Of a stretch of DNA of 64,000 bases, positions 6,632-59,885 are shown piece by piece. This stretch comes from Nymphaea colorata (lineage: Eukaryota), in contig NC_045138.2 in the NCBI RefSeq assembly GCF_008831285.2, positions 13,144,001-13,208,000 on the forward strand, in the 5' to 3' direction. The notes under the pieces are model-generated. The model was not told the origin of the DNA. It made no database searches and was given only the letters and a program-made list of their open reading frames with translations. The stretch's first letter is position 1. Every line of letters starts with the position of its first letter. The position numbers and the translations under genes were made by a program.

Positions 6632-6636
<5 letters not shown>

Positions 6637-6672: not shown

Positions 6673-6675
<3 letters not shown>

Positions 6676-7952: not shown

Positions 7953-8349
7953 TTGGACAATGTTTCTGCGGGTATGACTGAATGGAAGAGTCTTTTGAAC
8001 AATTACTGGACACGGTTTAGCAAGTACTGTGACCATGTGACCAAAGTTGATATTCGACAGGTATCCCTTGTTTCCAAATTGCTAATGAATTGCAGGAGAT
8101 AATCCTTTTTAGGCTGTTGCTTATAAATTTATTTTTCTATTCGAATCTTTGTAAAACTCATATTAGGCATTTCAGCTAGTTGTATGGTATGAAAATCCCT
8201 AAACAGCACAAAGGTGCAAGTTGTAATTACCTCTGCTTCTTGCTCTTCTCTTACTGGCCACTCTTCTTGCAGGTGGAACAGATGTTGGGAGAGACTTTTA
8301 AGGATCAATTATTCTCTTCTCTACTTATTAAACACAGAACTTGTCCTAG
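7953..8349 (+). pseudogene. Two-exon fragment of the plant type IA (bacterial-like, organellar) DNA topoisomerase I
   Basis: Exons 7953-8060 and 8273-8349 with a GT-AG intron give LDNVSAGMTEWKSLLNNYWTRFSKYCDHVTKVDIRQ|VEQMLGETFKDQLFSSLLIKHRTCP. This matches the recalled region before the zinc ribbon in plant type IA topoisomerase. No flanking exons found. Confidence 0.8.
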
Positions 8350-9847
8350 GTACTTATGCTGGTGTACACTTCTTTTTTTTTTTTTTGGGTTCAACTAGTA
8401 CCCTATTGCAGACTTATCTGGCTTCAGATATAATTTCCTGCACCTAATTTCTACCAAGCTTTCATGAATGACCAAAGATGAGCAGAGGGAGATTTGATAC
8501 TAACATATTAACCTATTGAGTTGTGAGTTTGATGGATGGGCTAATGCATTCAATGTTGCTTTTTCTTTTGGGGTGCTCAAAGTGGCCAATGCATGTACAA
8601 GGAAACGAATGGACATAAAAACACTTTCATATTTGTTGATATGGTAAATATTATTAAGCTATTTGCAAAATTTGCTTGAGAAGTTTTCGACCAGAGCTAA
8701 AGAATTTTGTGTGACCAAGTTAAACATGAAAGGACAGAGAATTAGAAAAGAGCAAGGTACTCAAGAACTGATATAATATGCACAAAAGTTTGTTTATAAT
8801 GAAAAGTGCTGTCATATAAAATGACACTAGTGTGGCTGTGTTTTGCTTGTCACACAGACACAGGACTGTGTGCAGAAAATGATCTCGGATGTATTGATGA
8901 TTCAGGGCTCCTGTCTCTCTCTCTCTCTCTCTCTCCAACTTTAAGTGAATCACAAAGTAAAAGAAAAAAATATATGTAAAAATTGTAGCTTACAGCATTT
9001 GCTTATCTGGTAATAACAATTATCCTCCTCTGCGTTTGAGAGATTGAGTTTTCCACATGCAGCATCCGCTAGTTCCCACTACAACAAACATCGTTCATTG
9101 ATTTTAATCAATATTTTGTCTTACCTTTCATTATAAAAGAAACAAACATATCTTAAAGGCATCATATCCAAAACTCTGATATGCACCTTATATCATATTT
9201 TAAGATAAAATTCATCAAGAGGACGACAAGGGTCCTCAGGACATAACATAATAAAGTACAAAAGATATAGTGACAATAGTTTGCCAAATAATCACGACTG
9301 TATCGTGACATAATACTATAAATCATAATAGAATTTGCACCTTTCCAAAATGAACAACTGCCAAAGCAGCTGGAACATATAAGAAATTGAAATCTAAGGA
9401 TAAAAACGGTTCCTAGAACATAAAGTACAAGTTTAGTGATCCTCAAAAAAAGGAAACAAGTGAACCAGAACTTGGTCATCTGTGCACATGAGCAATGTTT
9501 TTAAAGTTTAAACCCATTGACCCAGGATTCAACCAGGAATTAATTAAGTCATGACTCTGCAGTTTGACTCAGGAAGCAGTGAAAAAAAAACCACTGAGCA
9601 AGGAAGAGCATATTTTTAATGCTCTTCATTCAAGCCAAGGAATGTGATTCTTCAAATTGGCTAACAAAATGGATGGTTCAAACATTGACAGGTCAGAAAC
9701 TTAGAAATAAGTGCCATAACAATATTAAAGTATAGCACAGTGCTTTAGCTCATCCTTATAGGAGTTCAGCAGCGATTAACAGAATGCCACATACAGAAAT
9801 AGCTCGTTTGAAACAGCCATGAGATGCAAAGCAAGGAAAAAACTAAC

Positions 9848-28189: not shown

Positions 28190-28943
28190 GAGCATCCACT
28201 ACTTGCCTATGACAACCAATCAACATATTATTTTAATACCACCTAATTACTATTTTTAATGGTGGGACATTGCTTCATCAAGATCCTTAAATAGTTCTCC
28301 GGTGTCACGACACTACTTCCCCGTTGTTGAACGGGATTCATCATAGACCTTCCATCCTATTTCGATTTACCTATATGGAAATCTATTTTTCAAAAACTTT
28401 TTGCATCTCCTCTCATTTACTAATATTAACAACACCCAACAATTTCAACCCGTATTTGTTTGTTCATCACTATTTGTCAAGAATGTGCTCCCACATGCAG
28501 CATCCGCTACTTTCCAAAGACAACCAGCCAGCCATTTATTTTGATTGAAAATAATTGACATTTTTGAGCTTGATTGTCGGGACATTGTCTCATCAAGATC
28601 CTTGAATAGTTCCCAGGTCTCATGATGATGGCAGGGTCTTCATGGCCTTTTTCATGAAAATATTGTAGCATTTTTCATCAATGAAAATTGAGCGTCTCAA
28701 CCATCTGGCCTCAAACTACTGAAGGCAGCATGACATTATTATATTGAAAAATAAACCTTAAGTAATCGAACATTTAGTTAACTATTTTCATCATGTTCTC
28801 GCACTTGTCTAGTGTTGCATGCTTTTCATTATCATTCCTTTTGTCTCACCCATAACCTCCTAAAAGTGACCATTATACCGATGCATCTAGTTGGCCATAC
28901 ATTGGTTGTGTCAACCAGCCAGTCATTTATTTCAATTGCATTT
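28190..28943. repeat. Degenerate copies of the ~307-bp satellite
   Basis: Shares CATCAAGATCCT..A.TAGTTC and CGCACTTGTCTAG...ATGCATCTAGTTGG...GTCAACCAG...CATTTATTTCAATTGCAT with the units at 31194-33449. Confidence 0.7.
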
Positions 28944-28944
28944 T

Positions 28945-31193
28945 GTTAAAGCTTTTTAGAGTCAATTTGAGTCTTTTTAAAATATTAAAAGGTGGACAAG
29001 GGTCTACTTATTGTTTTCAAGTCAGAGTCCACCGAGTCAAAGTCTCTTTGATCTTCTGCAACTTGATGTTTGGGGTTCAAGTCGTGTTTCTCGTCGTTCA
29101 CGTTTCTGGTATTACCTTGTTTTGGTTGATGATTTTACTAGAGTCAGTTAGGTATTTTTGTTACGGAACAGGTTTGAAGTCATCTATATTCTTCAGAAAT
29201 TTGTCAATGAAATAAAAACTCAGTTTGGTGGTATTGTCAAAAATATTCACACTGATAATGCTCTTGAATTTAAATCTTCAGTTCTACTCCAATTTTATGT
29301 CAATCATGGAATTCAACCACAATATACATGTCCCACACATACCAACAAAATGGTGTTGCTGAACGCAAACATCGACAGCTTCTAAATGTGGCCCGTACCC
29401 TCATGTTGCACACTTATATGTCTGCCTATTTTTGGGGTGATGCTATTCTAAATGTGGCCCGTATCCTCATTTAAATACTATATCTAGATTGACCATCATT
29501 TCATATACCCCCCAAAGTATTTGGATGCATTTGTTTTGCACACATCTTGGGCCCAAACAAAAACAAACTTGCTGTCCAAGCTGTCAAATGTGTGTTCATT
29601 GGATATTCTGCCAATCAAAAAGGCTATCGATGTTTTGATCCCCATACCAAGAAAGAGATTGTCAGTGCAGATGTTACATTTTTTGAATCTCGTCCTTATT
29701 TCTCTGTTCCAAGTACCATTATGTCTGAGCTTCCTGTGTCTGTTCCTCTTCCTATTCTCCCAGTATCACTTGAGTCGATCTCGTCCTCTCCACCATTATC
29801 AGGTGATCATTTTCTTGATCCTCCAATACGTCTATACCCGGCGTCAAGGTCCCTCTCCTAACCGCCCACCAACATCTTCTCATGAGGTAAGTTCTAATGA
29901 TAAGACTGACTCAGGAAGAAATGATGGCTATTCTGCAGATGATCTACCTATTGCTATTCGCAAGGGTCGGCGGTAGTGCACAAGGCATCTGATTTCTAAC
30001 TCGGTTTCTATGGACCATTGGAGCACAAGTTTGGTGCAGTTTGATCGAGCTATAGCTAGTCATACTATTCCGACCTCTCACCACCAAGCCTTATTAGATT
30101 CACGATAGAATCACGCTATGCAGGAAGAAATTGATGCTCTTCTTTCTAAGGAGACTTGGGACTTGGTGGACCTACCATTGAATTGTGATGTTGTCGGCTC
30201 CAAATGGGCATTCACCATCAAATATCATTTTGATGGGTCTGTAGAGTGATTCAAAGCTCGTCTTGTGACTAAAGGCTATGCACAGACTTATGGGGTGGAC
30301 TTCTTCGAGATGTTTTTGTCTGTGACATGGTTATCAGCTTGATGTGAAAAATGCATTTCTATATGGTGATCTCTCTGAAACAGTCTATATGCAACACCCA
30401 CCTGGTTTTGAACGACAGGGAGAATGTTTGAAGGCATGCAAACTTAAAAAGGCTATGTTGATGATATTGTCCTCACTGGAGAAAGTACTCAAGAGATAGC
30501 TCAGATAAAGGAGTTCTTACAGAAACACTTTGTCACAAAAGATCTTGGTCAACTTCGATATTTCCCTGGTATTGAAGAGGCTCGTAATAGTAAAGGGATT
30601 GTGATGTCTCAAAGGAAATATGTTCTTGATCTTTTGCAGGAAACATGGTTATTAGGAGCCAAACCTGCTACACTTCCTATGAATCCTCGAATTCATATGC
30701 ATGATGATGAATCAGAGGCTTTTGACTTTCGTTCTTACAGATTTGTGATAGGAAAACTTTCATATTTGACCATCACTCGTCCAGACATCAGCTTTGCTGT
30801 AAATAAGCTTAGTCAATTCACGGAGAAACCTCGAAAAGTTCATTCTGAGGCTGCTTTTAGTGGTGATAAAATACTTGAAATCAGCCCCAGGAATGGGGTT
30901 ATGGTTCAAAAAAGGAGAATGTGTGGACATAGAAGCATATAGTGAAGCTGATTATGCAGGGTTAGTAAATGATAGGAGATCTACTACATATTTTTGCGTC
31001 TTTATTGGCGGGAATCTTATTTTTTGGAGGAGCAAGAAATATAATGAGGTTGCTAGATCGAGTACTGAGTCTGAATATAGAGCTATGGCTCAAACGGCAG
31101 CTGAAATGTCATGGGTCAAATTAGTGCTTATAGAATTGAGAATTTCAGTGAAACTTCCTATGAAGATGTATTGTGATAACAGAGCAGCTACCT
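28945..31193 (+). mobile_element. Degenerate Ty1/Copia internal fragment (integrase, RT, RNase H), no LTRs
   Basis: TDNALEF..QNGVAERKHR, KCVFIGY..NQKGYRC, YQLDVKNAFLYGDL, TRPDISFAVNKLS, DRRSTT..WRSKK..VARSSTESEYRAMA..YCDN. Stops, frameshifts and RT deletions. Flanked by satellite on both sides. Confidence 0.93.
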
Positions 31194-33449
31194 ACATCAC
31201 AACCCTTGATCGCACTTGTCTAGCAATGCATGTTTTTCATTGACTTTCCTTATGTTTTACGGATAACCTCTTAAAACAGACCACTATACCATTGCATCTA
31301 GTTGGGCATGCATTTGTCGTGTCAACCAGTCAACCATTTATTTCAATTGCATCTAATTAACATTTTTAACTTAATGATGGGAATGTTGCTTCATCGAGAT
31401 CCTAAAGCAGTTCCAAGGTCTCACAGGACTGCTTTCCCTCTTTGTTGTACGGGGTCCATCATATCATTTTCCCTCAACATAAGACGATCACATATCATTT
31501 ACATCACATGCCTTGAGCGCACTTGTCTAGCATTGCATGTTTTTCATTGTTTTTCCTTTTGTCTTACAGATAACCTCCTAAAACTAACCATTATACCGAT
31601 GCACATAGTTGGTTATACATTCGTCGTGTCAACCAGTCAGCCATTTCTTTAAATTGCATCTAATTAACATTTTTAACTTCATCATGGGCCTGCTGCTTCA
31701 TCAAGATCATAGAGCAGTTCCGAGGTCTAACAGGACTGCTTTCCCTTTTGTTGAACAGGGTTCATCCTATCTTTTGCGCTCAAAATGAGACGATCACATA
31801 TCATTTACATCACATCCCTTGAGCGCAATTGTCTAATACTGCATGCTTTTCATTGAGTTTCCTTTTGTCCTTTGCATAACCTCTTAATGTTGAACATTAT
31901 ACCAATGCATCTAGTTGGCCATACGTTGGTCATGTCAACCAATCAGCCATTTATTTCAATTGCACCTAATTGACAATTTTAAGTTGATTGTGGGCATGTT
32001 GCTTCCTATGTCACACGGGTACGGGTACGCAGACACAACAATTTTCAAAATTTTAGGATATGTGGACACCACGAATATTATATTTAAAAAAATTAAAAAT
32101 AATAATAAAAGTAAAAAAAATTAAATTAATAATTCACTCCTACAATCTCATAAGTCATAATATAGAAAGTCTCAAACAAACATAACATGAAATAAAACAA
32201 TACAACATAGTATAAACATGCAGATTTATTTCTAGATTATGTAAAACAATCCTCAATGAGAGAAGGCAAGTTCCAGCACATTCTAGTGACTGTTGGCAAC
32301 GACCACCTTACAAGCACTAAGGCAAAATCCTCAAATCAGCAAAATCCCCAAATCAAACAAAAAAAGAAAATATCACACATAGCATTGAAGAATAGGATCA
32401 AGATCGACGAATTAACCGTTCAATCTTCAAACGAAAATATCCCCAAATCGACAGGAAAAACCCAAATGAAGCATGAAACCCTAACTTCTAATATCGAAAA
32501 TAAAAAAAAACACTTACCTGTCTGTCGCCGGCTGCCACCGGATGTTGCCGTCGATCACCGGAGCTCGTCGCTGTCACCCGCCATAGAACTCTATTGTCGC
32601 CGCAAGGAGTCGAGGGTAAAGGTCGACCGTCGAGGGTAAAGCGTAAAACGAAATCGAGGGTTAAAACAGAAAATCGGGTTATGAAAGTGGTTCGGATCGA
32701 GTCTGACCTAGACCTGATCCAAAACGTATCCTGCTATGTCCAAGTGTCGAGATCCACATGTCGGAGTCTAGACACCGGTACGTGATCCAGATTGCCATAT
32801 CCATGGCACATAGGTTGCTTCGTTAAGGTCTTAGAGCAGTTTCCAGGTCCCATAGGACTGTTTTCCCTCTTTGTTGTACGGGTTTCATCTTATCTTTTGC
32901 CTTCAAAATGAGACGATCACATATCATTTATATCATATCCTTTGATCGCAGTTGTCTATCAATGCATGTTTTTCATTGACTTTTCTTATGTTTTACGGAT
33001 AACATCTTAATACTGGCCATTATACCAATGCATCTAGTTGGGCATGCATTTGTCGTGTCAACCAGACAACCATTTATTTCAATTGCATCTAATTAACATT
33101 TTTAACTTGACGATGAAAATGTTCCTTCATCGAGATCCTAGAGTAGTTCCAAGGTCTCACAGGACTGCTTTCCCTCTTTATTGTATGGAGTTTATCATAT
33201 CTTTTGCCCTCAACATGAGACGATCACATATCATTTACATCACATGCCTTGAGCGCACTTGTCAAGCATTGCATGTTTGTCATTGATTTTCCTCGCCTTA
33301 CGGATAACCTCCTAAACATGACCATTATACCGATGCACATAGTTGGTTATGCATTTGTCATGTGAACGAGTCAACCATTTCTTTAAATTGCATCTAATTA
33401 ACATTTTTAACTCCATCATGGGCAAGCTGCTTCATCAAGATCATAGAGC
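31194..33449. repeat. ~307-bp tandem satellite, about 4.7 units, interrupted by a TIR element
   Basis: Units start near 31194, 31501, 31807, 32930 and 33237 (ACATCAC...CTTGA.CGCACTTGTC...). Confidence 0.92.
32006..32813. mobile_element. Non-autonomous hAT-like TIR element (808 bp)
   Basis: Perfect 8-bp TSD GTTGCTTC at 31998-32005 and 32814-32821. Imperfect TIRs CTATGTCACACGGGTACGG versus reverse complement CTATGTGCCATGGATATGG. Removing it restores the satellite unit. Confidence 0.85.
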
Positions 33450-35198
33450 TTGTGGGAACGTTACTGTAATCAACACTCAATAGCAAGCGGTCATTTACCA
33501 ATGCCTCAGAAATTCATGATCAAGTTCCAGCCCATCATCGAAAAACTCAAGGAAGCTGGATATATTGGGGAAGACCCCCTCAAACATTGGTCGAAAAATA
33601 AGGTTCTCTGTAAGATTACCTTGAAGAATCCAGAATTCATCATAGAAGACAGACCTTTAAAGCACGTAACGCCTCAAATGAATGAGTCATTTAAAAAGCA
33701 CATCTCGGCACTACTCAAGCTCAAGGTGATAAGGCCGTCAAAAAGCCAGCACCAAACAACGTCCAATATTTTTTATTCTGGAACAACCCAAGACCCCAAA
33801 ACAGGGGAAGTTAAGAAGGGGAAAGAGAGAATGGTCTTTAATTACAAACGTCCCAACGACAACACAGAAAATGACCAGTACTCGCTACCTAGCATCAATA
33901 CGATCATCAAGAAAGTATCAGGTAGTAAAATCTACTCAAAATTTGACCTAAAGAGTGGATTCCATCAGGTAATGATGGACCCCGAATCAGTACCCCTAAT
34001 AGCGTTTTGGGTACCACAAGGTCTCTTCGAATGGCTAGTAATGTCATTCGGCTTAAAGAACGCTCCTGCAGTCTTTCAGAGAAAAATGGACAATTGCTTT
34101 CGAGGATCGGAGGGCTTCATAGCCGTATACATCGACGATATCCTAGTCTTTCAGGGATCGGAGGGCTCCACATCTTTTTAGAAAGATGCAGAGCCAACGG
34201 GCTAGTTCTTAGCCCCACCAAAATGACAATTGGGCAAAAACAGATTGAATTCCTCAGAGCCATTATTGGCAATGGAGAAATATAGCTACAGCCCAACATC
34301 ATCAAAAGGATCGTAGAAAAACAAGAGTCGGATCTGACAACAAAATCTGGTCTACGATCATGGTTAGGAATACTTAATTATGCCAGGAACTTCATTCCTA
34401 ACCTTAGCAGACTATTGGCACCCCTGTATGGCAAAATAAGCCCTATAGGAGAAAAGAGGTTGAATCAGCAGGCTGCTGATTAGAAAAATCAAAGAACGGG
34501 TTAGGAATCTACCAGCCCTGTCAACACCCCCAGCAAAATGTTTCATCATCCTATAAACATATGGATGCATGGACGGATGGGGAGGGATCTGCAAATGGAA
34601 GCCTCAAAGGTATGATCCGAGGAGCATGGAAAAACCATGCGCATATGCAAGTGGCAAATTTAATCCGCCAAAATCAACTATTGATGCGGAAATATTTGCA
34701 GTCATGAACAGCCTCGAATCATTAAAAATTTATTATCTGAAGCAAAATGAGCTGCTTATCAGAACCAATTGCCAGGCCATCATTAGCTTCTTTAACAAAT
34801 CCAATATCAACAAACCCTTTAGAGTCCGATGGGTAGCCTTCATAGACTTTATTATGGGGCTAGGAATTGATGTGTTGTTCGAACACATTGATGGAAAGGA
34901 CAACGTTCTGGCCGATTTGTTGTCACGGATAATCTCCATCTTAACAGGCTCACAACTCAATATTCATGAGCCTCAACTACAGGTGGTGACAGTATTTGAA
35001 CAATGTTTACAGGAATGGCAGGACCATCCAGGACCTCCATCCCAACAACAGAAACCCTACAACCTGTGCAATCAGGTGATCCATTTGCTGAACAATACAG
35101 GATCATCCTCAAAGAGCTCAATCTCGAAAACGACACTCAGGGTGGGCAACTACCCAAACAACGAAGGGATGAACTCCTGGAGGAACTCTCCAGTATAG
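33450..35198 (+). pseudogene. Badnavirus-type ORF3 C-terminal part: reverse transcriptase and RNase H
   Basis: GEDPLKHW..KGKERMVFNYKR..IYSKFDLKSGFHQV..FGLKNAPAVFQRKMD..YIDDILVF and GWGGICKWK..AYASGKF..KSTIDAEI..HIDGKDNVLADLLSR. Frameshift after DDILVF and in-frame stops. Confidence 0.93.
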
Positions 35199-35407
35199 AA
35201 ATCGGGATCCTCAATCGCATCTTGTTAGATCTTGAACATGTCCAAACCATACAGGAGCTCAAATGGACCACGGCCTTTCATTCCTCTGCTCAAAACACTT
35301 GTTGGCGTTACATCTAACAAACAACCTAGCAACATATGGAGGAAGTCGAAAAAGTTATCTCCCACGTCAGGGAGATAATCAATAAGATTCGTAAAACACG
35401 AATCTAA
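35003..35407 (+). pseudogene. Viral ORF overlapping the ORF3 3' end (ORF Y/ORF4-like), two premature stops
   Basis: The frame continues past TAA/TAG as ..CWRYI*QTT*QHMEEVEKVISHVREIINKIRKTRI*. Position matches the overlapping ORF Y of some badnaviruses. Confidence 0.65.
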
Positions 35408-35447
35408 TTCTTTCAACATTTTTCCTTTTAAATTTTAGGTTATAGCC

Positions 35448-35852
35448 ATGGCACAAGCAACTGAGCCAGAATTTGAAGAACCAAACTTCATGCAACCTGG
35501 CTCAATGATCGTCAACCGCTATAAAAATCTTGCCGGACTCCATCACCCAGAAGTCGCAAGGTTTTGGGGATATATAGTTGATGAAGGATTCAACATATCA
35601 CTTGACAGGTTCGAAGAACTTGGACAAGATTTGAACAGATTAGAGGCCGCTCTTTGCAACTGTTTAGAAGCCGATCTAAGGAGCTTCAAAGAAATACAAG
35701 AAATACAACTCTTGATCTGCACCAAAATTGCAACTTCTGATAATTACTGGACTTATGTCAGAGAAAGTATGAAGATCGCGCTGGACAAATGTAAGGTTCT
35801 CTCTCGATACATTATCAAGACAATAACAGCAGTCAAGGAGATCAAGATCTAA
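35448..35852 (+). CDS. Intact 134-aa viral accessory ORF (second ORF Y-like paralog)
   Basis: Open ORF with GCCATGG start context and a DNYW motif; aligns without gaps to the preceding ORF. Confidence 0.65.
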   Translation: MAQATEPEFEEPNFMQPGSMIVNRYKNLAGLHHPEVARFWGYIVDEGFNISLDRFEELGQDLNRLEAALCNCLEADLRSFKEIQEIQLLICTKIATSDNYWTYVRESMKIALDKCKVLSRYIIKTITAVKEIKI

Positions 35853-35872
35853 AACTTCAAGTGAACCCCGGC

Positions 35873-36110
35873 TGACGCAAGCAGTAACAATTATCCTGCA
35901 GTAATAAGTAACTTTTGTCGGGAAGCATCGGCGCCTGTGCCGCGCGTTCTCAATTATTGAACTTTTCTTATCGTGTCACGCGTCTTTATGGCACGCAGTA
36001 ACTTTTGTCGGGAAGCGTCGGCTCCTATGCCACGCGTTCTCAATTATTGTACTTTTCTTATCATGTCACGCGTCTTTTTGGCACGCAATAGGAGTCCCGC
36101 ATCTATATAA
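35873..36110 (+). promoter_or_regulatory. Viral pregenomic-RNA promoter region with a 90-bp tandem duplication and TATA box
   Basis: TGACG at 35873; 90-bp direct repeats at 35907-35996 and 35997-36086; TATATAA at 36104-36110, about 180 bp upstream of the PBS. Confidence 0.7.
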
Positions 36111-36289
36111 AGGACTTGGGTCGAAGGTGTAAACCATCTTGGAGTTCCCAAGGGTTCAACTCTTCCATAGGATTTATTACTCGTATTTTGAAAGCTTGGA
36201 GCACTGCCTCCTCTTTCTAATCAAGGCTTTTCCTTCATTCTAGATCTTCTTCTTCATTCTCCTTCCATTTTTGCAAGGCTTCCGCATTC

Positions 36290-36302
36290 TGGTATCAGAG
36301 CC
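36290..36302 (+). other. tRNA-iMet primer-binding site of the virus
   Basis: TGGTATCAGAGCC, the canonical caulimovirid minus-strand priming site. Confidence 0.92.
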
Positions 36303-36483
36303 TGACATTTACAAGTAAGTCTGATTATCCTCATACTTAATTATTAGCAGTTTTTGTTTAGGAATTGTGTTTTCAAAAATCTTTTGTTAAAGACCCAGAT
36401 CTCAGAGGCCACGAGTAAGCCCTCAGAAAAGATCATAGGTCGCGCACAAGTTTTTGAAGGACACTAAACCCTAAAACCTAAAC

Positions 36484-36761
36484 TTTCATTAGCCAAAAAT
36501 TGAGGAAACTCAAACCATCCTCTCTGCTCTGACCGATATTCAGGCCAAACTCTTGTCTCTAGACTAAACCGTATCATAAGAATAGAATCCCAAGTTGGTC
36601 ACCTATCCACTATAATTTCTCAACTGAAACCTATAACCCCATCGGCCCCTACAAACAAGACCCCTTACCAATACACTGTCCTTAGCCACCTAACATCCTT
36701 GGAAGGTCGAACCCAAACCATAGAAGCCAAGATCTTACAAGTCCAGAAGCAACTCTCATGA
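36484..36761 (+). pseudogene. Viral ORF1 3' remnant
   Basis: ..RLNRIIRIESQVGHLSTIISQL..LTSLEGRTQTIEAKILQVQKQLS* ends in an ATGA overlap with the ORF2 start (36758-36761), as in badnaviruses. No 5' part recognised. Confidence 0.6.
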
Positions 36762-37162
36762 ATGACAACATTGCGTTAAAAAGGGCTCTTTCGATCACAA
36801 ATGCTATCGAGTCCCCTTCAGTTGCATACGTGAAGCCTTCGAACAACTCATCAGTTGGAGCTGCAACATCTGCTTTAATCAAGCAGAACAATATGATGAT
36901 CCAGTTGGTTACTCAAGTAATCGACAACCAAATACAACTTGCAGCGAAGCTTGCGGATCTTTCTTCTCAAATCAAGACCGCAACCACAAAAGAAGATACT
37001 CTATCAGACTCTCTGATAGACGAGCTCGGAAAGAAGTTTAAGGACCTTTCCATCGGCAAACCAGTCGAAAACAAAGGAAAACTGCACGTCGTTACAGATC
37101 TTTATTCTATCCTTAAAGACGAAAAGAAGAAAATCAAGAATAGATCGACGACCGTCAGTTAG
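36758..37162 (+). CDS. Badnavirus ORF2-like (virion-associated P2) protein
   Basis: AIESPSVAYVKPS..LIKQNN..IQL..LSIG..KGKLHV..ILKDE matches recalled P2 motifs. The native stop at the ORF2/ORF3 overlap appears mutated. Confidence 0.85.
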   Translation: MNDNIALKRALSITNAIESPSVAYVKPSNNSSVGAATSALIKQNNMMIQLVTQVIDNQIQLAAKLADLSSQIKTATTKEDTLSDSLIDELGKKFKDLSIGKPVENKGKLHVVTDLYSILKDEKKKIKNRSTTVS

Positions 37163-37496
37163 TTCATCCCAAACTCTAGCTTCAACTTCTCAGTCCGAAT
37201 TTGAGGATCAGATCCGAGATTATAACAACCACCAAAGATGACGCCACACTTTCCAGAGGAGGATAAATTCCCTCATCCGGCGTAACCACCGAGAATTTCT
37301 TGAAGAACAGCTGCAACCTGAGCAGCAGCTGAGGAGATCCCTATGCGAACGTGCAAATATGGTACCAGTAGAGGTACTGTACTCAGCACGTAGCAACACG
37401 GATCAGCACCGTGTTTATCAGCATCTATCTGAGGAAGCGATCTCCTGCCTTGACAACCAGCAAGTGGACCGACCATTCATCCAAACGGAGAGCTAC
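37140..37496 (+). pseudogene. Badnavirus ORF3 N-terminal (movement protein) fragment
   Basis: FEDQIRDY..LEEQLQPEQQL..RANMVPVEVLY..HRVYQHLSEEAI.C.D.QQVDRPFIQTESY. Start appears as ATA; TGA at 37239; truncated at 37496. Confidence 0.88.
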
Positions 37497-37509
37497 CTAA
37501 ACCCTAACC

Positions 37510-37716
37510 TTGAAGCTCATGATCCTTGGTCCGTGAATCTGTTAGGAAAGTGATCATTCGGGATAATGTGTCTGCTATAACGTTGTCTTTCCCGTCGATG
37601 TGTTCAAAGGATACATCGATTCCTAGCCCCGTAATGTAATCTACGAAGGTTACCCATCTGACTCTGGAGGGTTTATTGATGTTGGACTTGTTGAAGAAGC
37701 TAATTATGGCTTGGCA
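37510..37716 (-). pseudogene. Inverted RNase H fragment from a second, diverged badnavirus-like variant
   Basis: Minus strand reads CQAIISFFNKSNINKPSRVRWVTFVDYITGLGIDVSFEHIDGKDNVIADTLSRMITFLT. Homologous but not identical to 34769-34945. Confidence 0.92.
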
Positions 37717-37892
37717 GGGTTTAGGGTTTAAGGTTTAGGGTTAGGGTTTAAGGTTTAGGGTTTAGGGTTATGGTTTAGGGTTTAGGGTTTAGGGTTTAGG
37801 GTTAGGGCTTAGGGTTTAGGGTTAGGGTTTAGGGTTTAGGGCTTAGGGTTTAGGGTTTAGGGTTTAGGGTTAGGGTTTAGGGTTTAGGGTTT
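37717..37892 (+). repeat. Interstitial plant telomeric repeat array (TTTAGGG)n, about 25 units
   Basis: Read directly; mostly TTTAGGG with TTAGGG, TTTAAGG, CTTAGGG and TTATGG variants. Confidence 0.97.
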
Positions 37893-40800
37893 GCAGGATC
37901 TGTCGGCCTGAGCTGTGTCTGTTTCTCCTTCAATCGATGCCACGAAAGTATTTCACTTAGAGAGAGAATGTTCTTGCGAACTTACTTGCTTTCTTTGTGG
38001 CTTTCTTGTGCTTTTCTTTTTTCGAATCAAAATATCGGGATTCTTATGAGGTGAGCAAAAGTAACCCGAAGAATGTGTAAAACCTTGAAAAATGTCCCCA
38101 AAGACAAAAAGAATTATCTTTCACAGGAAACTCTGGATCGTGTTAATATGAGAAGGGAAATCATGAATTGTAGAGAATCTGAAAGCGATGTGGACTTATT
38201 CTTGAGACCGTATCATGCTCGGAAGGATCAGGAAAGTTTCAAGATACCAATCTGTGCAATGTTTTTTGTGACTGGGAAATGAAAAATACCTTTTCCAGCG
38301 TCGGTCCTCATATAAAGGCCGTGGCGGCGAAGAGTGCTTCTGACTTCTTTGGTAGGGTTAAGGGAAATGTTCACTGGTTTGCAATGGGAGTACGCTTTTT
38401 ATTTGGAAGGATGGACCGCAGATGCTGATTTGAATGAGGCCTCGAGGTTGTGTTGCAACTGCCAACTAGGACTGCCCAACAAGTTGAATGACACGAGCTC
38501 GACTCGTATATTAAACCAAATTGAGTTGGAGCCTAAACGTGAACTTGTCCGGCGAAATCAGCTAGACAGGCTCTCCTTGTTCAAACTCGATTAAGCTCAA
38601 TTTTGTGCGTTTAGTGTTGACGATATCTTGGCCTTTGGATGTAATAATTTGGTAATCTATATTAAGAGGTTGGATTGCAATAACGTTCTGAATACTGTTA
38701 GAATTAACAGTCGTTCTCAACGTAATTTAAATGGCACATCTCTTGGGGCCATCGTATGTTGAAATTAAAACACACTTTCTCATGGTGTGTATTCGGGGTT
38801 TAACTTAGTATTCATGTGCTCGAAATTTTTTTTTTTCAAACAGTTCGTTCCAACTTCGCTTTTGCTTTCTGTTTTTCTCACGCAATTTTGTGCGAGATTC
38901 TCTCTGAAACTTTTTCCAGAAACACGTTGAAGCTTTAGTTATGTAGTAAAATTACGCTTTAGTTTGCATCTTCCTATTTATCTTGGAAAATTTGTCCCCG
39001 AAGTCAATACATGGGAAATCCAAGTATGGACTTTGAATTCATGATGCGCTGGAGATTGGAGCTCTGGTGAGCCTGCAAGGCACGTTCTCACCTTTAATTC
39101 ACTGTGTAATCTGCTGCATCACCCATTTCATATGAACCACATACTTGGGTACAATGGGCACAGGTCGATCACTTTACTTTACTCATATGCAGTGATTGCA
39201 CCATCTACGTGCCTTCCATTAGATGAGTGCAATGGGATTAACTACCTGTTCTGAACTCCACATGCCCCTGGATATGGATCTTGGATCTTTCCAATAAGTT
39301 GTACTTCCCAATGCAAAGTAGGACGGTTTGTGGATCTGATAAGCGACTTTCAGTTAGTACATATGGAATTGGCAAGACGAGAAGTTGACATGTGCATGAA
39401 CACCTTGGAAAAAATTTCTAGTTCTCCGGCTTTACCGATCTACTCTGCTCATCTGCGTTAACGATTACTTTCTCTTTCTGCGTATGAGAAACGTTACATA
39501 AAACACTATCCCTTTTATATATCCAAATCAACAAATCTATAATTTTGGGGAAAAAAAGGAAAGTCGATTTATGTCTTATCAGTCTGCGCTGCTCCAAATA
39601 CTCCGCACCTCGTATGCCTTTTGACTCTTGCAACTATTTGTGTCTTCAACATCACTATTACGTTTGAAGTACAGAAACCCTCATCCTCCTGTCCACCTTT
39701 ATACAAATCCTAAGTTAGGGGTTGATTCGCACTCTTAACTATGTGGTACGTACTTAAAATGCAGGTCTTTTATATCTCAAGTTCTTATTCTTTTTGCAAT
39801 GGATGTGATTATGTTCCAAAACCTAGCAAGAGGCACCGGAATCACCTTTTATAAAACGGAAAAATGTGAATCAATTGATTTCTAGATCTGCTATCGACGG
39901 AACTAAATTATGCTAACCTAGGATCCCTCACCAAGGCAAGCCTGCAGCAGCGAGGTGAGGATGGGTGATCCATCGTGGTGAATCTCTTTCTCAACCCATT
40001 GTTGTCCATTGGAAATTAATCAAACCTCCACTTCAATTAGGAATGTTATAAATGGATCAGATATCGGGGTCAAAATGGCTTCAGAAAAAAAAATTTAACG
40101 TCCAATTAGGGAATCGTTTTTGAGAAATTAGATTCTGGTCCATTCAATATTTAATTAAAATTCAATGTTTATTTAAAATCCGGTCAGATCTCCATTCAAA
40201 TTAGGATTAGGTTATAGCTTTAAATAAACATCTAATATCGACACGTTTTAGAAAGTTCGTTTTGATGTATGATAATGCAGTTCAGATTCTACTATGTATT
40301 ATTGGTTGTTAATTAAGAAGCTGGATTCTAATTGTCTCATACTTCATGGACATTTTAAGCATTAAGGTAAAGCGAGTGTGTTCGGCCTACGGAAGGATAG
40401 GAACCTCGGTTGACCAGAGGCCATACCCCCTACACTCAGTATGGATTCGCCTGTCATGACCTGGTTACATTTGTAAAAACCGGTGTTTGGCATTTGAACC
40501 AATTGCACGCATCCATGTCTCACTATACACAACTGCAAACGGGGTCGGCGATAAATCATTTTATACAGTTCAATTGCTCAACTGCCTGACCGCAGATTTC
40601 AGTATACCTTCAACATAAAAATAACACAGTCAAAGGGTTAAAAGATAATTATCTTTAACCTGGTACTACCAGCTAGTCGCCCCCAAGAGGAAATGCTGAT
40701 CCAAAGGGATAATGAAGACCAAAAAAAAAAATCTTGCAGCCTATAAACGCTATATAATTGTCATATAATTGTCTGTGAAAAGAGTAACATCAATTTGACC

Positions 40801-40945
40801 AAAAAAAAGAGTAACATCAAAATCAGGCAAGCTCTCACGGACTGCCGTTGTTATTGATGGCTTAGAACATACAAAATTTGTCGGAAAGGGCCTGAAACCC
40901 TAACCACTGGACGGTGGAACTAACAGGCAGAATAAAGCATGAAAC

Positions 40946-41523
40946 TCAATCTTCCAGCTCTATAATCTTCACCACAGATGCATCACCGACCTTTTGACAA
41001 ACGACAACGCGATCATGTGACTTGATGATACCTGATGCCTTCCCGTGATCCAACGCAACCTTAAGAACCGACTCATTGGTAGCATTGGTTGACTCCGCCT
41101 GTAGAAATTTTGTAAACTCATTGAATAGCACAAAAAGAAAAAAAGAAAAAAGCTTGAACTCAATCAATATCTGCATAGGTGTGTGGGACTGATCGCTGGA
41201 TGGAAACGAGAGAGAGAGAGAGAGAGAAAGGAACTTACTGGATGACGCGGATCAGCCAACATAGGGAAAAGACCTCTTACTATCAGAGATTGCCTAGCCT
41301 GCTCACGCCATGGAGAAACAGGGGTTACTTCATAAGATTATTTCCGCATGAATGAAATAAGCCACAGAAGAGCTTGGAAACCAAAAGAAACAAAGATCAT
41401 TTCAAGAAAATAAATGAGCATCAATATATGGCTGGAGAGAGACAGACAAATTAACATTGGAAAAAACATAGCCAATGATAACCATGCAACATAAAACAAA
41501 TTTGTTTCCATATATGTTTCCAT

Positions 41524-50959: not shown

Positions 50960-53900
50960 ATATTAGTGTTGGTTAGCGCACACAGCCATCCCTTGTCGTT
51001 CCTTGAGAAAACTAGAGAAGAACGGAGAAGGCTGGAGAGAACTTCATTTTCTATTGATCCCTTTGAACGTATATATAGTACAAGAAAGGCATCGTTACAA
51101 TAAGTTATCAACACCCGATTTTAGGAACAAAGATCATGTTCATCCATATCTTTCCATGTGTATCCCTATTCTCTCGAGGCGATCATGTGCATCTTAATCC
51201 ACTGAGAATGGCGATCATGTGCATCTTAATCCACTGAGAATGATGCGTAACAGCTCTTGCTTAGGGCTGTGATGCTTTATCCTTGACACTCCCCCTCAAA
51301 CTGAGGCATAAAGATTCTTTACGCCCAGTTTGGATAACAAATGTTTGAATGCCTCTTTGCCTAACGCCTTGGTAAAGATATCAGCTAGCTGCTTTTTGCT
51401 TCTGACATAGCATGTTCTGATTTCACCTTGACTGATTTTTTCTCGTACTAAATGACAATCAATGTCAATATGTTTGGTGCGTTCATGAAATACTGGATTG
51501 GCTGCAATATGTATTGCGGCTTGATTATCGCAATACAAATTTACTGGTTGTGAGTGTTGGACACCTAAGTCGGATAATAAATATTTTAACCATGTTACCT
51601 CACAAACAGCATTTGCCATTGCTCGGTATTCTGCCTCAGCAGAAGAGCGAGACACAGTGGACTGTTTCTTTGTTTTCCATGATATGAGAGATGCTCCAAG
51701 GAGAACACAATAGCCAGTGACGGATCTTCGTGTTTCATGACAGGCAGCCCAATCTGAGTTACAAAATACACTAACTTGAAAATTATTTTCTTTGCCCAAT
51801 AAAATGCCCTGTCCTGGATTCATTTTAATAAATCTGACAAGTCTCAAGGCAACTTGAAAATGTGATTCCTTTGGTGCATGCATGGAACGACTTAGAACAT
51901 GAACGGCAAACTGAATATCTGGTCTCGTGATACTCAAATAAATAAGACGTCCAACCAGTCTTCTATATTTCATCGGATCCTTCATTTCTTTACTTTGAGT
52001 AGTATCCAGATCATGTTTCTGCTCCATGGGAATTTATGCTGGCTTTGCGCCTAACAATCCGACCTCATTTATAATGTTGAGTGCATAATTTTGTTGTGAA
52101 ATGTATATTCCTTCGGATGATCGGGCAATTTCCAGCCCCAAAAAATACTTAAGATTGCCAAGATCTTTCATGCGAAACTTTTGGCACAAGAAAGACTTAA
52201 ATTTTTCAACAAAATCCTCCATATTACCGGCAATGATCAAGTCGTCCACATATACTAAAACAGCCAAAAAGGCATCTCCTTGTTTAAGAGTAAATAGCGT
52301 GTGATCTGCTTTGGATTGTATAAACCCAAATTCCTTAAGCGCCATAGATAACTTGTGAAACCAATTTCTTGGAGACTGCTTAAGGCCGTAGAGAGATTTG
52401 TGAAGCTTACACACTAAGTGCTCCCCCTTACGGCCGTATCCTTGTGGTACCTGCATATACACTTCCTCAAGCAAATCTCCATGTAGGAAGGCATTATTTA
52501 CATCCATTTGATATAATAACCAACCTTTTGCAGCAGTGATGGAAAGGAGGGTTCGAACTGTTACCATTTTGGCGACTGGCGCAAATGTTTCATTGTAATC
52601 TAATCCCTCTTTCTGTGAAAATCCTTTTGCTACCAGACGAGCCTTGTATCGTTCGATGGATCCATCCGACCGAAATTTTACTTTGTATACCCATTTACAA
52701 GCGATGGGTTGGATGCCTGCTGGTAGAGTAGTCAAAGTCCACGTTTTATTGTCCCGTAATGCACTTATTTCTAAGTCCATGGCATCTCGCCACTCTTTAA
52801 GTTTACTGGCCTCTTCATAGGATTCTGGTTCAGAAATTGAGGCTAAAGAGGCTAAAAAAATGGAGTGTTGAGAAGAGAAACGATGTAAAGAAGTAAACTT
52901 GGAGAGAGGATACTTTGTACCTGTTACAGGATTTGCCATCGAGTCGCCGTTGATCAAAGATGTCGAAATTAGAGAACAATAAAAATCTTTCATCCAAGTG
53001 GGTGACCTTTTTTGACGAGAGGATCTTCTAAGGTGTTCATTTGGCTCAGATCCCAAGGCTTGGTTTGATTGCATGGTTTCTCTATTGATGAGTTGTATGT
53101 CATGCAAAAGTATATCATGAGGTGGAACATGTGTCTCACTACTTGTAGACATGCTCGGGTCTTCACTAACATCAGCCGTAGGTGACACTTCATCGAATGG
53201 GCCAACCATACTTTCCTGGGTTATTGGCATAGGCAAAACAATCGATCTTTCTTCCTCCATGACTTGTTGGAATGGAAAAATATTTTCATAGAAAACAACG
53301 TCCCGATTAGTGAAAACTCTCTTATTTTCTAAATCATAGACCTTATATGTTTTCTGTCCCTCAGGATAACCAATAAAGATGCATTTATGCGCTCTAGTTT
53401 CGAATTTGCCTTTGTTGTGATTGTTGTTGGTAACATAGCAAAGAGAGCCAAAGACACGTAGATGTTCAAAGGATGGTTTTTTTTTAAATAATTTTTCAAA
53501 TGGTGCTATGCCTCCCAGTGTAGGTGTAGGAATACGATTAATAAGATAGGTGGCCGTTAAAACACATTCGCCCCAAAACTGAATTGGTAAATTTGCTTCA
53601 AAACGGAGGGCCCTTGCTACTTCAAGAAGATGACGATGTTTGCGTTCTACCACTCCATTTTGCTGTGGTGTAGCGACACAACTATGTTGGTGAATAGTAC
53701 CTTGTTGATTGAGGAAGAATTGCATTTCATGAGAAAAAAACTCGGTACCATTATCAGTTCTCACATTTTTAATGATGACACCAAATTGATTTTTTATCAA
53801 CGCAAAAAAATTTTTCACAAGATATAATGTTTCATGTTTGTGTCTCATTAAAAAAATCCATGTAACACGAGTAAAATCATCTACAACACTCAAGAAATAA

Positions 53901-54180
53901 TGTGCTCCGGTAAAAGTTGACTGTGAATAGGGACCCCAAATGTCACAATGAATTAATTCAAAAGGCTCCTTAGTAGAAATATCACTTAAATCAAATTTCA
54001 AACGTGTTTGTTTTGCGCATCGCAACAAATATCTTTATTTAAGTAGCAATTCATCCCTAAATAAGAACTAACTAACCGAAGTAGAGAAGTTGAAAGATGA
54101 CCAAATCGCCTATGCCATAGGTTTGGAGATGAAGTTAGGACAAAACATTTTGTAGGTGACGCCAATGATTTAAATTCATA
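50960..54180 (-). mobile_element. 5'-truncated Ty1/Copia element (GAG-pre-integrase, integrase, RT, RNase H, PPT, 3' LTR)
   Basis: ORFs 54028-52034 and 52027-51296 are in frame, separated by one TAA. LWHRRFGH lies upstream. PPT GAGGGGGAG is followed by TGTCA at 51288. The outer LTR boundary is approximate; no gag or 5' LTR. Confidence 0.92.
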
Positions 54181-55218
54181 TAGTCCTCCTCTTTCTTCAC
54201 GGCACCCACCGCCGCAGCAGATGATGACCCTTCTTCTCTTGGCTTTCTGCGTGTGCACCTGAGCGAGGTTGTAGAGCCTGACAGTGATGTTCTCATGAAG
54301 CCTTTCGCACGCCAGGAAATCGGCATGCTCATCCTCAACCCCTTCCAGGGGATACTCGGCCGAGGGGGAGTGAGCTACAACGGCGTCCCTCGAACATCAC
54401 GCAGTGGTCGTAGTCGCACGCGGAGACTATAACACGCCCTCCATTGCTGATGGTTACAACGTACGGGATGGTCAGGCTCTGGGGCTGAAGAAGACGATGA
54501 GGCCTTGCCGCTTGCAGTGCAGGATGCACAGTACCAGTTCTCGGTTCGTATAAGACTGGCAAACAAAGAACGTGATATCTAACAATGATCAGCATTCGTG
54601 CAAATGCTAAAAAATGCCAATCAGCAACATTTTATCAAATTATCAAGCACACCATATCTAACTATGAAAGTCTTCAGCACTGAAGAACATCCGATCGCCA
54701 TTGCCTAACATGGAGCAAGAATTATATTTACACATGTTACGATAGACAAGCACCGGGAGATTAGTACTAGATGGTAAGTTTACTAGATTATACCATTATT
54801 TCTCTTCTCTTGCACGTGGTGCAGCTCAATAGATTTTTGTAGTATCCGTGTGAGCACTTGTTCTTGGATTACGCATATACTAAGAAATCTGATTTTCATA
54901 GCTAAGTCCACTCTGCCAATTTACAAAATATTTTCTTTCCGGCTTTCATAACAAATGGAGCTTATACGATCTCTAATCCCGAATCTCTTCAAAATATCCA
55001 CACGTCACAGCGGACTTGAATATATTCAAGACTCCATGATGAACAAATGAAGATCAATCTCCAAACAAATTGAACAATGCGACTCACTGCACTACAAAAT
55101 GGGGAGAGGGGGTCAGTTGCAGGTGGATCTTCCCCTGGATAACCCATCTCTTTTTCTACGGGTCAAAGTGCACATAGTTCCCTTCATTTTGGATGAGTCA
55201 TTCTTCCTCTTGGGTTGA

Positions 55219-55499
55219 TGTGAATTTTCCTCATAAAAGACGTAAAGAGGAAGAAACGTAAAGGAGGGAAAGACTTAAGGCAGAATGGGTGAGTCTATTA
55301 ATTCCTTCCATTCTATTGTGCCATATATATACAATGGTTTTATTACAACGGTACAAGAGTAAACATCATTAACGAGAAGGTGTTAAACTTGGAAAGGAGA
55401 GGAAGAGAGACGTTTGAGAGAGAAGTTGAAAAATTTGAACGTTGTAAGGTCGTTTAGATTATGCGACCTCTTGATCCAACGTTACAACTAAATTTAACA
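55219..55499 (-). repeat. 3' LTR of the full-length Copia
   Basis: About 13 mismatches in 281 bp versus 59886-60166 (manual count). Confidence 0.96.
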
Positions 55500-58400
55500 C
55501 TCTCCCTCAAACTGGTGTGTAAAGACTTGTGACACCCATTTTGCATAGAAGATGATTAAAACCTTCTTTTCCAAGCGCCTTAGAAAATAAATCGGCTATT
55601 TGATCCTTGCTTCGAATATAGCACGTTCGTATGATCCCTTCAACCAATTTCTCTCGTACGACATGACAGTCAAGTTCAATGTGTTTTGTCCGTTCATGAA
55701 ACACTAGATTTGCAACAATATGTAATGCAACTTGATTGTCGCAGTATACAGTTACTGGCGATATTTGACTAAAACCTATGTCATGTAATAGGTATCTTAA
55801 ACATGTTATCTTAAAGACTACATTTGCCATTGATCTGTATTCTGCTTCTGCGGATGATCTGGATACCGTGTTTTGTTTCTTTGTCTTCCAAGATATGGGC
55901 ACTGATCCAAGAAAAACACAATAACCGGTGACAGAACGCCGTGTTTGTTGACATGCGGCCCAATCTGAATCACAGAAAGCACTTAATTGTATATTATTTT
56001 CTTTCTTCATAAGAATGCCTTGACCCGGATGCTTTTTGAGGTAACGGATGACGCAGAACGCTGCTTGTAAATGTGGTAGTCGAGGTTGTTGCATAAATCT
56101 GCTTAACACATGCACAGCATATTGTATGTAGTAATACTCAAATATATTAACCTCCCAACAATTCGACGGTATTGTGTCGGATCCTTAATGAAGTCTCCAT
56201 GTTCGATGTCTAAGTTATGCTTTTGTTCCATAGGGGTATCAGCCGGTTTTGCTCCCAAAAGACCTGCTTCATGAATAATGTCAGTAGTATATTTTTGTTG
56301 AGAAATATATATTCTTTTGGTTGAGCGAGCAATTTCAATTCCTAAAAAGTATTTGGGTTTGCCCAAATCTTTCATGTGAAACTTTTTGCATAAGAAGGTT
56401 TTGAAATTGTCAATTGCTGCTTCTGTATTACCCGCAATTATTAAATCATTGACATATATTAAGATAGCAATAAAAACCTTACCAAGTCTAAAGGTGAATA
56501 ATGTATGATCAGCTTTGGATTGTACGAACCCGTATTCTTCAAGGAAAGTTGAAAGTTTATAAAATCAATTTCTTGGAGATTGTTTCAAACCATAAAGAGA
56601 TTTGTGCAATTTACATACATGGTTCTCCCCCTGTTTTGAGTATCCTTGTGGTATTTTCATGTATACTTCTTCAAGTAGGTCTCCATGTAAGAATGCATTA
56701 TTAACATCCATTTGGCACATGATCCAATCTTAGTTGGCTGCAATAGTGAAGAAGGTACGTACCGTTACCATCTTTGCAACGGGTGCAAAAGTTTCGTTAT
56801 AGTTCAGCCCCTCTTGTTGAGAATATCCTTTAGCGACCAAACGAGCTTTATATCTTTCAATGGATCCATCCGATCTCAACTTGATCTTGTAGACTCATTT
56901 ACTCCCAATTGGGTTCACTACTTTTGGAAGCGTTGTAATGGTCCAAGTCTTATTCTCTTGAAATGCACGAATTTCGCAATTCATGACATCTCTCCATTCC
57001 TCGTACTTAACGGCTTCTTCATAAGTTTGAGGCTAAGATTTTGACATAAGAGAGGTGAGAAACGCAAAATGTTTATTAGAAAAGCGTTGAAAAGAAATAA
57101 ACATGTTTAAGTCATACCTTGGTCCTTGTTGGCGACCTGACATGATAGTGTTATCGGTTGAAGGTGAGGCGAAGAGGGTACAAAAATAATCCTTCAACAA
57201 AGTTGTGGGTTTTCTGATCCGAGCGGATCTCCTAATGGGTCTGGAAGTCTGATTAGGATCAAGAGAAGGGTTTGGCTCGTTGGATTCTATGGGTACAATA
57301 GAGTCTCCATGATGTTCAAGATTCAAAGGATTTTCATTCTCTAAGTATGTTGGTTCTAGATCTAGTGGTGTGCTAGAGAATGTTCTATTGGTTTCCTCTT
57401 GGTAGTTAACTTCGTCTTGGATGTAAGGTATGGGTAAAACAATTTTATTTTCGTCATCTTTTTTGTTTTGGAAAGGAAAGATATGTTCATAAAAAATAAC
57501 GTCACGATTAGAAAACACTTTGTGAGTTTCTATGTCATACAACTTGTATGCTTTTTGCCCCTCGTGATGTCCAATAAATTTGCATTTGGATGCCCGAGGC
57601 TCAAATTTATCCTTTTTGTGATTAGTGTTAGTGGCGTAGCATAGAAAGCCAAATATTTTCAAGTGTTTAATATTGGGTTTTTTCTTGAACAACCTTTCAA
57701 AAAAAGTTTTTCCATCAAGTTTTGAAGAGGGAATACGATTTATCAAATAGGCAGCCGTTAAAATGCATTCTCCCCAAAAACGTATAGGAACATTTGATTC
57801 AAACCAAAGAGCCCTAGCAACCTCGAGAAGGTGTCTATGCTTACGTTCTACTACATCATTTTGTTGTGGTGTAGTAACACAACTGTGTTGATGAGTAGTC
57901 CCTTGATTTTGTAAAAAATCTTTTATTTTGAGTGAGAAAAACTCAATCTCATTATCTGATTGTAAAGATTTAATGTGACAGTTAAATTGTGTTTTGATTA
58001 AGGCGAAAAAAATTTTGATGACATGGAGCGTTTTGTACTTATGCCTCGTCAAGAAAATCCAAGTGGCACGTGAAAAATCATCTACAATACTAAGAAAATA
58101 GTATGCACCAGAAATAGTGGATTGGGTGTAAGGACCCCAAATATCACAATGTATCAAATCAAAAGGATGAATCATAGAAATATCACTCAAATCAAACTTA
58201 AGTCGTGTCTGTTTTGCACGATGGCACACATCACACATATGATCATTATTCAAATCAAGACAAACATAAATTTTTGTTCACTAATTTCAGACCGCAAGAA
58301 GAAAGATGACATAATTTGTTATGCCATAGTTCATGTGAAGAAAGAGAAAAATAGGTGTGAGAACACATTGATCCTTGTTGAAGAACATATAGACCGTTTT

Positions 58401-59885
58401 TCGCCTCACCCTGACCAATCGTCATCTTCGATGCCAGGTCCTGGATAAAGCAGTAGTCAGAAAAAAAAAATTACAGAACACTTTAGGTTCTTTGTGAGTT
58501 CACTAACAGATAGTAAATTAACTTTAAATGATGGTATGCATAATACGTTGTCTATTTCAAAAGAAAACATATATATCTTACCCATTTGATGTACAAGAAG
58601 GGTTCTCTCATTTGGTAATGTCACAGGTACATTACACATTTTTAAATCATGAAGTGCATGCAAATTAGAGCATATATGTTGATTGGCTCCCGAATCTATA
58701 ATCCATGTAAGAAAATATAAATTTGTTGAACCAATGTTACCTGTGTGAGCTACATTACCTGCAAAATTGATGTTGACTGGCTGATCCTTCACCAAAGATA
58801 GAAGTCTGTGATATTGTTCAAGGGTGAAGGCTGGTGCAACGCTCTTACTATCATGTCCTCCACTGCCTTGACCATAGACATCATTGGAAAATCTGCATTT
58901 TAGATCTGAGTTGATTTGTTTTTGACTTACGCTAGCTGCAACATTTTTGTTTAAAATTGAGATCATAAAGACGGTGGCCTGGTGGATACCCAATCAGTTT
59001 GAAACATTTTTCTTTGATGTGTCCGACCCCTTGACAAAAACTGCATATTGGCCATTGTCGTCCTCGTTGAAATCCAGCACCATTATGTCGGTGGAACCTT
59101 TTGTCGTGGCTGGCTTTCATGATAGCTAAGGCAGTGGCTCCTTCATTTGCCGAATTGGAAAAACGTGTTTCCCATTGTTTTTCTTCTTGTAGTACCATAG
59201 CGTAGACTTTATTTATATTTGGAAGAGGGTCAACAAGTAGAATCTGCCCTCTGATTGAATTGTAAGAGTCGTTTAGACCCATAAGAAATTGCATGACACA
59301 TTCTCTTTGGATTTGATCAGAACATGCCTTCATGGCACCGCAAGAGCAAATAGGAACAAGAGAGTAGGAACCAAGTTCATCCCAAAGAGCCTTTAGTTTA
59401 GTATAATACGATGCAACAGTCCTGCTGTAATTGAAAAACCCGGGGAGCAAGACTTTGTGTGAAACGCTCTTTCAAATCTTGCCAGACTTCTCTAGCATTA
59501 GTTGAGTATATGATGCTTGCTAAAATGTCATTGGTGACAGAATTCAGAATCCAAGACAATACAAGATTATTGCATCTGACCCACAAACGGTGGTTAGGAT
59601 CATTCTTACGTGGTTCTATAATTGAACCATCTATAAATCTGATCTTGTTTTTCGCTGAGAGAGCCATCACCATGGCTTTACTCCACGTTCCATAATTTTC
59701 TCCATTAAAACTTTGAGACACCAAAGCATTTCCAGGATTATAGAATGATGAATATAAAAGGGATCAGACAACACCTGGATATCGGCACCGTTGATGTTGA
59801 AATCTGCATCATCACCAGCCGGACAACCATCGTTGATCTCCTCAGAGGCGTGTTCTGCCATTGAACTCAATGCTCTCTCATACCA

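Follow-up and report, generated by a model that had tools for sequence, protein, structure and literature searches.

An inverted badnavirus-like fragment between two telomere-repeat tracts in the genome of Nymphaea colorata

The junction described here combines pieces of two viral lineages, two tracts of telomere repeat and two different host repeats, and lies in a 64-kb window (the whole stretch of DNA analysed) of repeat-rich, plant-like DNA. From left to right, a degenerate, endogenous, badnavirus-like segment (virus A, 33450-37497, plus strand) ends in a 2-nt CC overlap (37496-37497) with a telomere word, the non-viral part of which is a 12-nt filler (37498-37509) that is G-rich on the minus strand. 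An inverted 207-bp RNase H piece from a second virus (virus B, 37510-37716, minus strand) follows, and is succeeded by a 177-bp G-strand telomere tract (37716-37892, plus strand). The last 3 nt of this tract (37890-37892) overlap a truncated member of a host repeat that exists in multiple copies, examined here from 37890 to 38700. An earlier note on this DNA had described an inverted 207-bp RNase H fragment with C-strand repeats on its left and G-strand repeats on its right, and this arrangement is borne out by the sequence. The locus is real, unusual and single. The reading preferred here, tentatively and at a little under an even chance, is that the virus B piece was captured at this one locus by microhomology-mediated end joining, together with one tract made by telomerase and a templated 12-nt filler.

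The host DNA to the left of virus A is a 307-bp tandem repeat (32814-33449, plus strand) that ends where virus A starts, with identity to the unit ending at 31715 lost after 33449; no telomere word is present at this boundary (33449/33450). A second block of the same repeat occupies 31193-32005, and a partial copy is found at 28800-28949. The host DNA on the two sides belongs to different repeats, and no target duplication is seen beyond 2 nt. For these reasons the locus is a rearrangement junction rather than a clean insertion.

Virus A preserves, in order, reverse transcriptase and RNase H, the ORFs downstream of them, the promoter, the primer site, the leader, the small ORFs and the beginning of the ORF3 movement region; its coding sequence is interrupted by stops and frameshifts. 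The reverse transcriptase matches PF00078 (E 3e-21) and the RNase H matches PF17917 (E 1e-7) in Pfam, and the reverse transcriptase is 55-74% identical to those of 26 viral genomes of 6.9-8.9 kb. When the gene order was mapped with P0002, P0006 and P0007, the primer site was followed by the small ORFs and then by the ORF3 movement region. The putative tRNA-Met primer-binding site, TGGTATCAGAGC (36290-36301, plus strand), was located by word search; the same word stands at position 1 in 25 of the 26 viral genomes and at 7545 in the remaining one. No integrase (rve) match was detected in the seven viral stretches scanned, and only about 4 kb of the viral genome is present at this locus. On similarity and gene order, with no tree including other genera, the virus is placed as an endogenous badnavirus (Caulimoviridae). 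Just upstream of a TATA word at 36104 there are two 90-bp copies (35907-36087) that are 92% alike, probably a duplicated enhancer of the viral promoter.

The virus A leader contains a telomere-like motif (36464-36483, plus strand), 170 nt past the primer site, in which a perfect 12-nt word is followed by a degenerate unit. This could be a telo-box-like element. Relatives in two of the sequencing runs introduced below (X4 and X5) align across the motif with gaps. A conserved telomere motif in badnavirus leaders was considered and rejected, as none of at least 12 nt is present in the 26 genomes.

The virus B piece is a stop-free stretch of 69 codons on the minus strand, and aligns in inverted orientation to the RNase H region of virus A (34770-34976) with 76.3% identity (E 6e-39). 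Between the two, 29 of the 49 differences fall at third codon positions. A fold-back duplication of the upstream RNase H was ruled out on this basis (25 of 35 differences in the first 55 codons are at third positions), and because of this bias the piece is assigned, from codon-level comparison, to a second viral lineage. Pfam assigns no family to the 69-residue piece alone, but the piece matches 87 of 104 candidates. The best of these is a Nymphaea thermarum 'Polyprotein P3' (77-80%), and the next are exogenous badnaviruses of fig, grapevine, yam and pepper.

The two telomere tracts differ greatly in length, with 12 nt on the left and 177 nt on the right. On the left, CTAAACCCTAACC occupies 37497-37509; with one more base on its left side, the perfect telomere word spans 14 nt (37496-37509). 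The right one has 25 full units: 16 TTTAGGG, 4 TTAGGG, 2 TTTAAGG, 2 CTTAGGG and 1 TTATGG, nine of the 25 being variants. The probability of a TTTAGGG/TTAGGG word in the stated polarity is approximately 1.1e-6 per position for 12 nt and 8e-8 for 14 nt, and the 12-nt word is placed exactly within the junction. Elsewhere in the window there is one 12-nt telomere word, that at 36464 in the viral leader. Read 5' to 3', the G-rich strand points outward from the break in both tracts, a pattern that is not specific to telomerase.

The stretch is present in five sequencing runs from two studies, of which four were compared (X1, X2, X4 and X5), X3 being from the same sample as X1. All are represented by short-read contigs, neither raw nor long reads; X1 may be the source of the window, and X2 is from the second study, with a depth of 3.7. 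A junction was counted as bridged where at least 31 letters matched on each side. By this rule the left junction is bridged without a mismatch in all four runs (among the 32 of 213 pieces listed), and both studies are represented. The joint between RNase H and the long tract is crossed by X1 and X4 contigs that match without mismatch to 37730 and continue for 15 letters, giving 29 letters on the tract side against the 31 of the rule; the X2 and X5 contigs end before it, at 37692 and 37680, respectively. The joint between tract and host repeat is reached by one contig among those listed (from X4, possibly the source), with 15 matched and 18 further letters on the tract side, and the middle of the tract (approximately 37746-37859) is covered by no contig in the four runs compared. 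The earlier note would have been refuted by junctions lacking read support; in the contigs of these runs the junctions stand, the left joint by the bridging rule and the right-hand joints on fewer letters and contigs. The depth of exact-match contigs is similar on the left and the right (21.7 and 21.4 in X4, 9.4-9.9 and 8.9-9.6 in X5, 49.7 and 45-54 in X1), which argues against an assembly misjoin. The junction contig itself (37012-37730) has a depth 1.5-1.7 times that of its neighbors in X1 (85.5 vs 49.7) and X4 (31.6 vs 21.7). This excess is absent in X5 and X2, and where present it may come from words shared with further viral copies or from a second occurrence of the junction.

Neither tract is native to the virus, since related copies continue with non-telomeric DNA at both breakpoints. 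After 37497, related viral copies diverge into non-telomeric DNA in six X2 contigs and one X5 contig, and at the other end they match to 37716 (two contigs from X1 and two from X2) or to 37717 (two from X5) before non-telomeric DNA follows, in each case among the pieces listed. In the full viral genomes the start of ORF3 could be aligned in 24 of 26 and RNase H in 26 of 26, all in frame through these breakpoints, and the named relatives of the 69-residue piece stay in frame past its last residue. No 13-nt telomere word occurs in the 209,645 bases of 29 viral loci, and a native, in-frame 12-nt telomere word is found in one of the 29 (L027). On this point, too, the reading of the earlier note, which a native viral tract would have refuted, is not refuted. 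The 13-bp left tract of that note is indeed a telomere word but is not wholly non-viral: the match to viral relatives runs through 37497, so the first C of 37497-37509 is shared with them and the non-viral filler is 12 nt long. The long tract is equally foreign to the host repeat on its right: in other copies of that repeat the match begins at 37890, and the DNA to the left of that position is non-telomeric (at least three contigs in X1 and at least one in X2); a tract native to this repeat was ruled out accordingly.

The layout, the overlaps and the non-native character of the tracts are directly established, and from them we infer an order of events and a set of enzymes. In the preferred reading, a 3' end at 37716/37717, belonging either to free viral DNA or to a chromosome broken within a copy of virus B, would first be extended by telomerase. 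The last two bases of the virus A end (37496-37497) would then anneal to the G-rich end of this piece, and polymerase theta would copy 12 nt, release, and join the other end of the piece. Finally, the host-repeat end would anneal to the tract by 3 nt and be joined, leaving the tract interstitial. With one telomere and a templated filler, a single telomerase event suffices to account for the asymmetry in length, the 2-nt overlap used for priming and the register. In plants, broken ends are reported to receive new telomeres within 2-3 generations (10.64898/2026.07.24.740321), and Arabidopsis fusions retain 50-270 bp of telomere and show microhomology (PMC2095805).

The preferred reading is supported by the non-native tracts, the overlaps of 2 and 3 nt at the outer joints, the unequal tract lengths, the start of the short tract out of register and an exact inverted match between the tracts. 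Together with its overlap, the filler is the reverse complement of 14 nt of the long tract at two places (37820-37833 and 37868-37881). The match is of low complexity and so is no proof that the filler was copied from the long tract. A further point against the preferred reading is that the overlap it would predict at the joint between filler and RNase H is not visible against the 76%-identical upstream copy, the sole copy compared there. The long tract is in register with the viral end by 1 nt when X1 and X2 relatives are used and by 2 nt when X5 relatives are used. A register match of 1-5 nt is treated as a mark of telomerase at breaks in PMC2246262, but matches of 1-2 nt are weak, arising by chance in up to a quarter (25%) of breaks according to table 4 of that paper. 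No empty allele was found among the 18 of 35 loose ends listed.

On the present sequence the short tract starts out of register, with an A and only two G residues before a six-base unit. The unit at this junction resembles the TTTAAGG class of the long tract, and a single later substitution of the deamination type could mask a start that was once in register. TTTAAGG can arise by deamination (PMC9827991), and methylation of interstitial telomere repeats has been described (PMC4971770).

The strongest of the alternatives, doubtful but deserving serious weight, dispenses with telomerase altogether. Both tracts would have been copied or captured from existing telomeric DNA, with the outer ends primed on single-stranded, G-rich telomere, C-rich DNA made inward and the viral piece serving as a further template in a patchwork filler. 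The outward polarity of the G-rich strands does not decide for telomerase, because the same layout is produced if the outer break ends prime on a telomeric G-strand; seen from outside, C-rich DNA follows both the virus A end, through an overlap of 2 nt, and the host-repeat end, through one of 3 nt. The overlaps are longer at the outer joints, where this alternative would place the priming, and the polarity there is right. The variants among the long tract's units (9 of 25) are as found in old telomeric DNA, but they are not clearly clustered (3 of the first 9 units vs 2 of the last 17, Fisher p 0.30) and may be later decay. Telomere insertions in tumors, 79% of them with microhomology and commonest on loss of ATRX/DAXX, are likewise read as capture in PMC7002710. 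Against this alternative, the synthesis of 177 nt on a template, or else a free piece of telomere, would be required, and the sharp, in-register start at 37716 suits telomerase as well. It is register and template, and not polarity, that can separate the models. The interpretation in the earlier note is thus supported in part: capture in the course of break repair is supported, and a fair case can be made for telomerase in the long tract, given its register of 1-2 nt, but polarity fails as proof.

It is unlikely that telomerase acted twice, healing both 3' ends of a free, linear 207-bp viral DNA that was then joined by its telomeric ends with the left cap shortened to 12-14 nt. In favor of this, neither tract is native and each points outward, the six-base unit of the left word is within the local range (4 of 25 units in the long tract), and the last five viral bases fit the 7-base phase at three of five positions, by eye and not significantly. 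Two telomerase events on one small fragment would be needed, however, the left tract begins out of register on the present sequence, and a unit that is just missing one G does not occur in the long tract. The polarity is equally explained by the other models, and no second example was found. Of the healing at two ends envisaged in the earlier note, a fair basis remains on the side of the long tract; the short one is out of register on the present sequence, and the long tract offers a simpler origin for it.

It is very improbable that the short filler was copied from the motif in the virus A leader (36464-36483), which lies 1 kb upstream and on the same strand, and that the filler resembles the long tract by coincidence. 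The first 11 nt of the motif are identical to 37497-37507, making it a candidate second template, and the following bases match after a 2-base slip, but that slip is required, the primer match is 1 nt only, and the long tract offers a longer exact match. Equally improbable is an artefact or a native origin, in which two loci were joined in assembly through the repeat or the tracts are part of the virus or of the host repeat. The absence of a spanning contig in the middle of the tract and the native word in L027 speak for this; against it, the left junction is bridged in all four runs, depths on either side are similar, the tracts are absent from related copies of the two viral pieces and of the host repeat, and a 13-nt word is missing from the 29 viral loci.

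Several features are shared with endogenous caulimovirids as presented in PMC10377300: no integrase was seen in the roughly 4 kb of viral genome present, the genome is partial and rearranged with an inverted piece, the joints have microhomology and two lineages are combined. The entry of caulimovirid DNA into plant chromosomes is still treated as speculative there, with capture during break repair as a standing hypothesis and (TA)n flanks as a characteristic. The simple repeat in the present locus is telomeric instead; no run of (TA)6 or longer occurs between 16482 and 41545, and the main text of that review contains no 'telomer'. A resemblance to polymerase-theta T-DNA fillers in Arabidopsis is found in the short filler, which is the reverse complement of the captured molecule's other end, and in the 2-3 nt overlaps (PMC10923293). 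The template here is a telomere repeat and the captured DNA viral, in contrast to those fillers, and 'telomer' does not occur in the main text of that paper.

Short interstitial telomeric sequences of mammals, as described in PMC2246262, likewise consist of a short tract between non-telomeric DNAs with the G-strand in register. The mammalian insertions are flanked by an empty orthologous site, whereas the present tract has a viral piece on one side and an unrelated host repeat on the other, with no empty site among the loose ends listed. The telomere-subtelomere fusions in Arabidopsis tert backgrounds (PMC2095805) are similar in that the tract is within their averages of 50-270 bp and has microhomology to non-telomeric DNA, and different in that it adjoins viral DNA here rather than known subtelomere.

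HHV-6 and Marek's disease virus integrate at telomeres via repeats encoded by the viruses themselves. The present locus resembles them in having viral DNA beside host-type telomere repeats, but differs in that the relatives here lack repeats at both breakpoints.

A search of the open-licence literature turned up no paper describing telomere repeats at the junctions of caulimovirid DNA; supplementary junction tables could hold cases. In the portions available of PMC8256270, PMC10707546, 10.1101/2025.06.08.658526 and PMC11712536, telomeres appear only in references or general remarks. Telomeric inserts at mammalian breaks and de novo plant telomeres are already known, and on comparison with these systems the locus appears to work in the manner of a junction formed by polymerase-theta capture, one that contains an interstitial telomere.

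It is rather improbable that plant telomerase caps linear pararetroviral DNA as it would a broken chromosome, here at both ends, with the tails then acting as microhomology handles for capture at breaks. If true, such telomerase-assisted endogenisation would leave plant genomes in general with short interstitial telomere tracts at the breakpoints of viral DNA. A general telomerase-assisted route of viral integration is not shown by this single site, and the other breakpoints seen, which are few and weak as evidence, carry no telomere repeat. Among the 24 of 101 loose ends of viral relatives listed there is no telomere run, and many of these ends mark divergence, not breakpoints. A cross-species comparison of metagenome contigs yielded three loci from 160 candidate stretches, too few for a test of enrichment. 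The one breakpoint in the metagenome locus L029 has no telomere repeat at the joint, with a 12-nt word approximately 70 nt away in non-viral DNA, and L028 has no telomere word of 10 nt. The native in-frame word of L027 is at 5843. This sequence (1-8395) has a 123-bp terminal repeat, matches badnavirus ORF3 over most of its length and is 72% identical to L013 in the RT-RNase H region, and on these features it is probably a complete circular badnavirus.

If telomere words proved to be enriched and in register at caulimovirid breakpoints, it would follow that telomerase acts on viral DNA and helps it become fixed in the germ line, and that plants carry viral scars among their short interstitial telomere tracts; if not, the locus would be one unusual repair scar. 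The junction offers overlaps at base level, two viral lineages and telomeric DNA in one place, and counts of telomere words at breakpoints seem to be unreported. Across 36100-37730, the runs X1, X2, X4 and X5 contain many related viral copies at 80-95% identity, several of them with joints or strand switches, and these copies form a large, rearranged endogenous family that is suited to a census of breakpoints.

A search of 33000-41000 against Rfam gave no match at the gathering score, a result of little weight for a divergent plant telomerase RNA. Outside the finding, AAACCCTAA occurs four times on the plus strand of the window (32476, 36466, 40895 and 46198) and not on the minus strand. The window also contains two copia-type coding regions on the minus strand (51283-54396 and 55494-59471), with rve, SH3, RVT_2 and Pol_BBD matches and 69-71% likeness to each other, and a third, decayed copia-type retroelement is recognizable, by eye only, at approximately 29100-31190.
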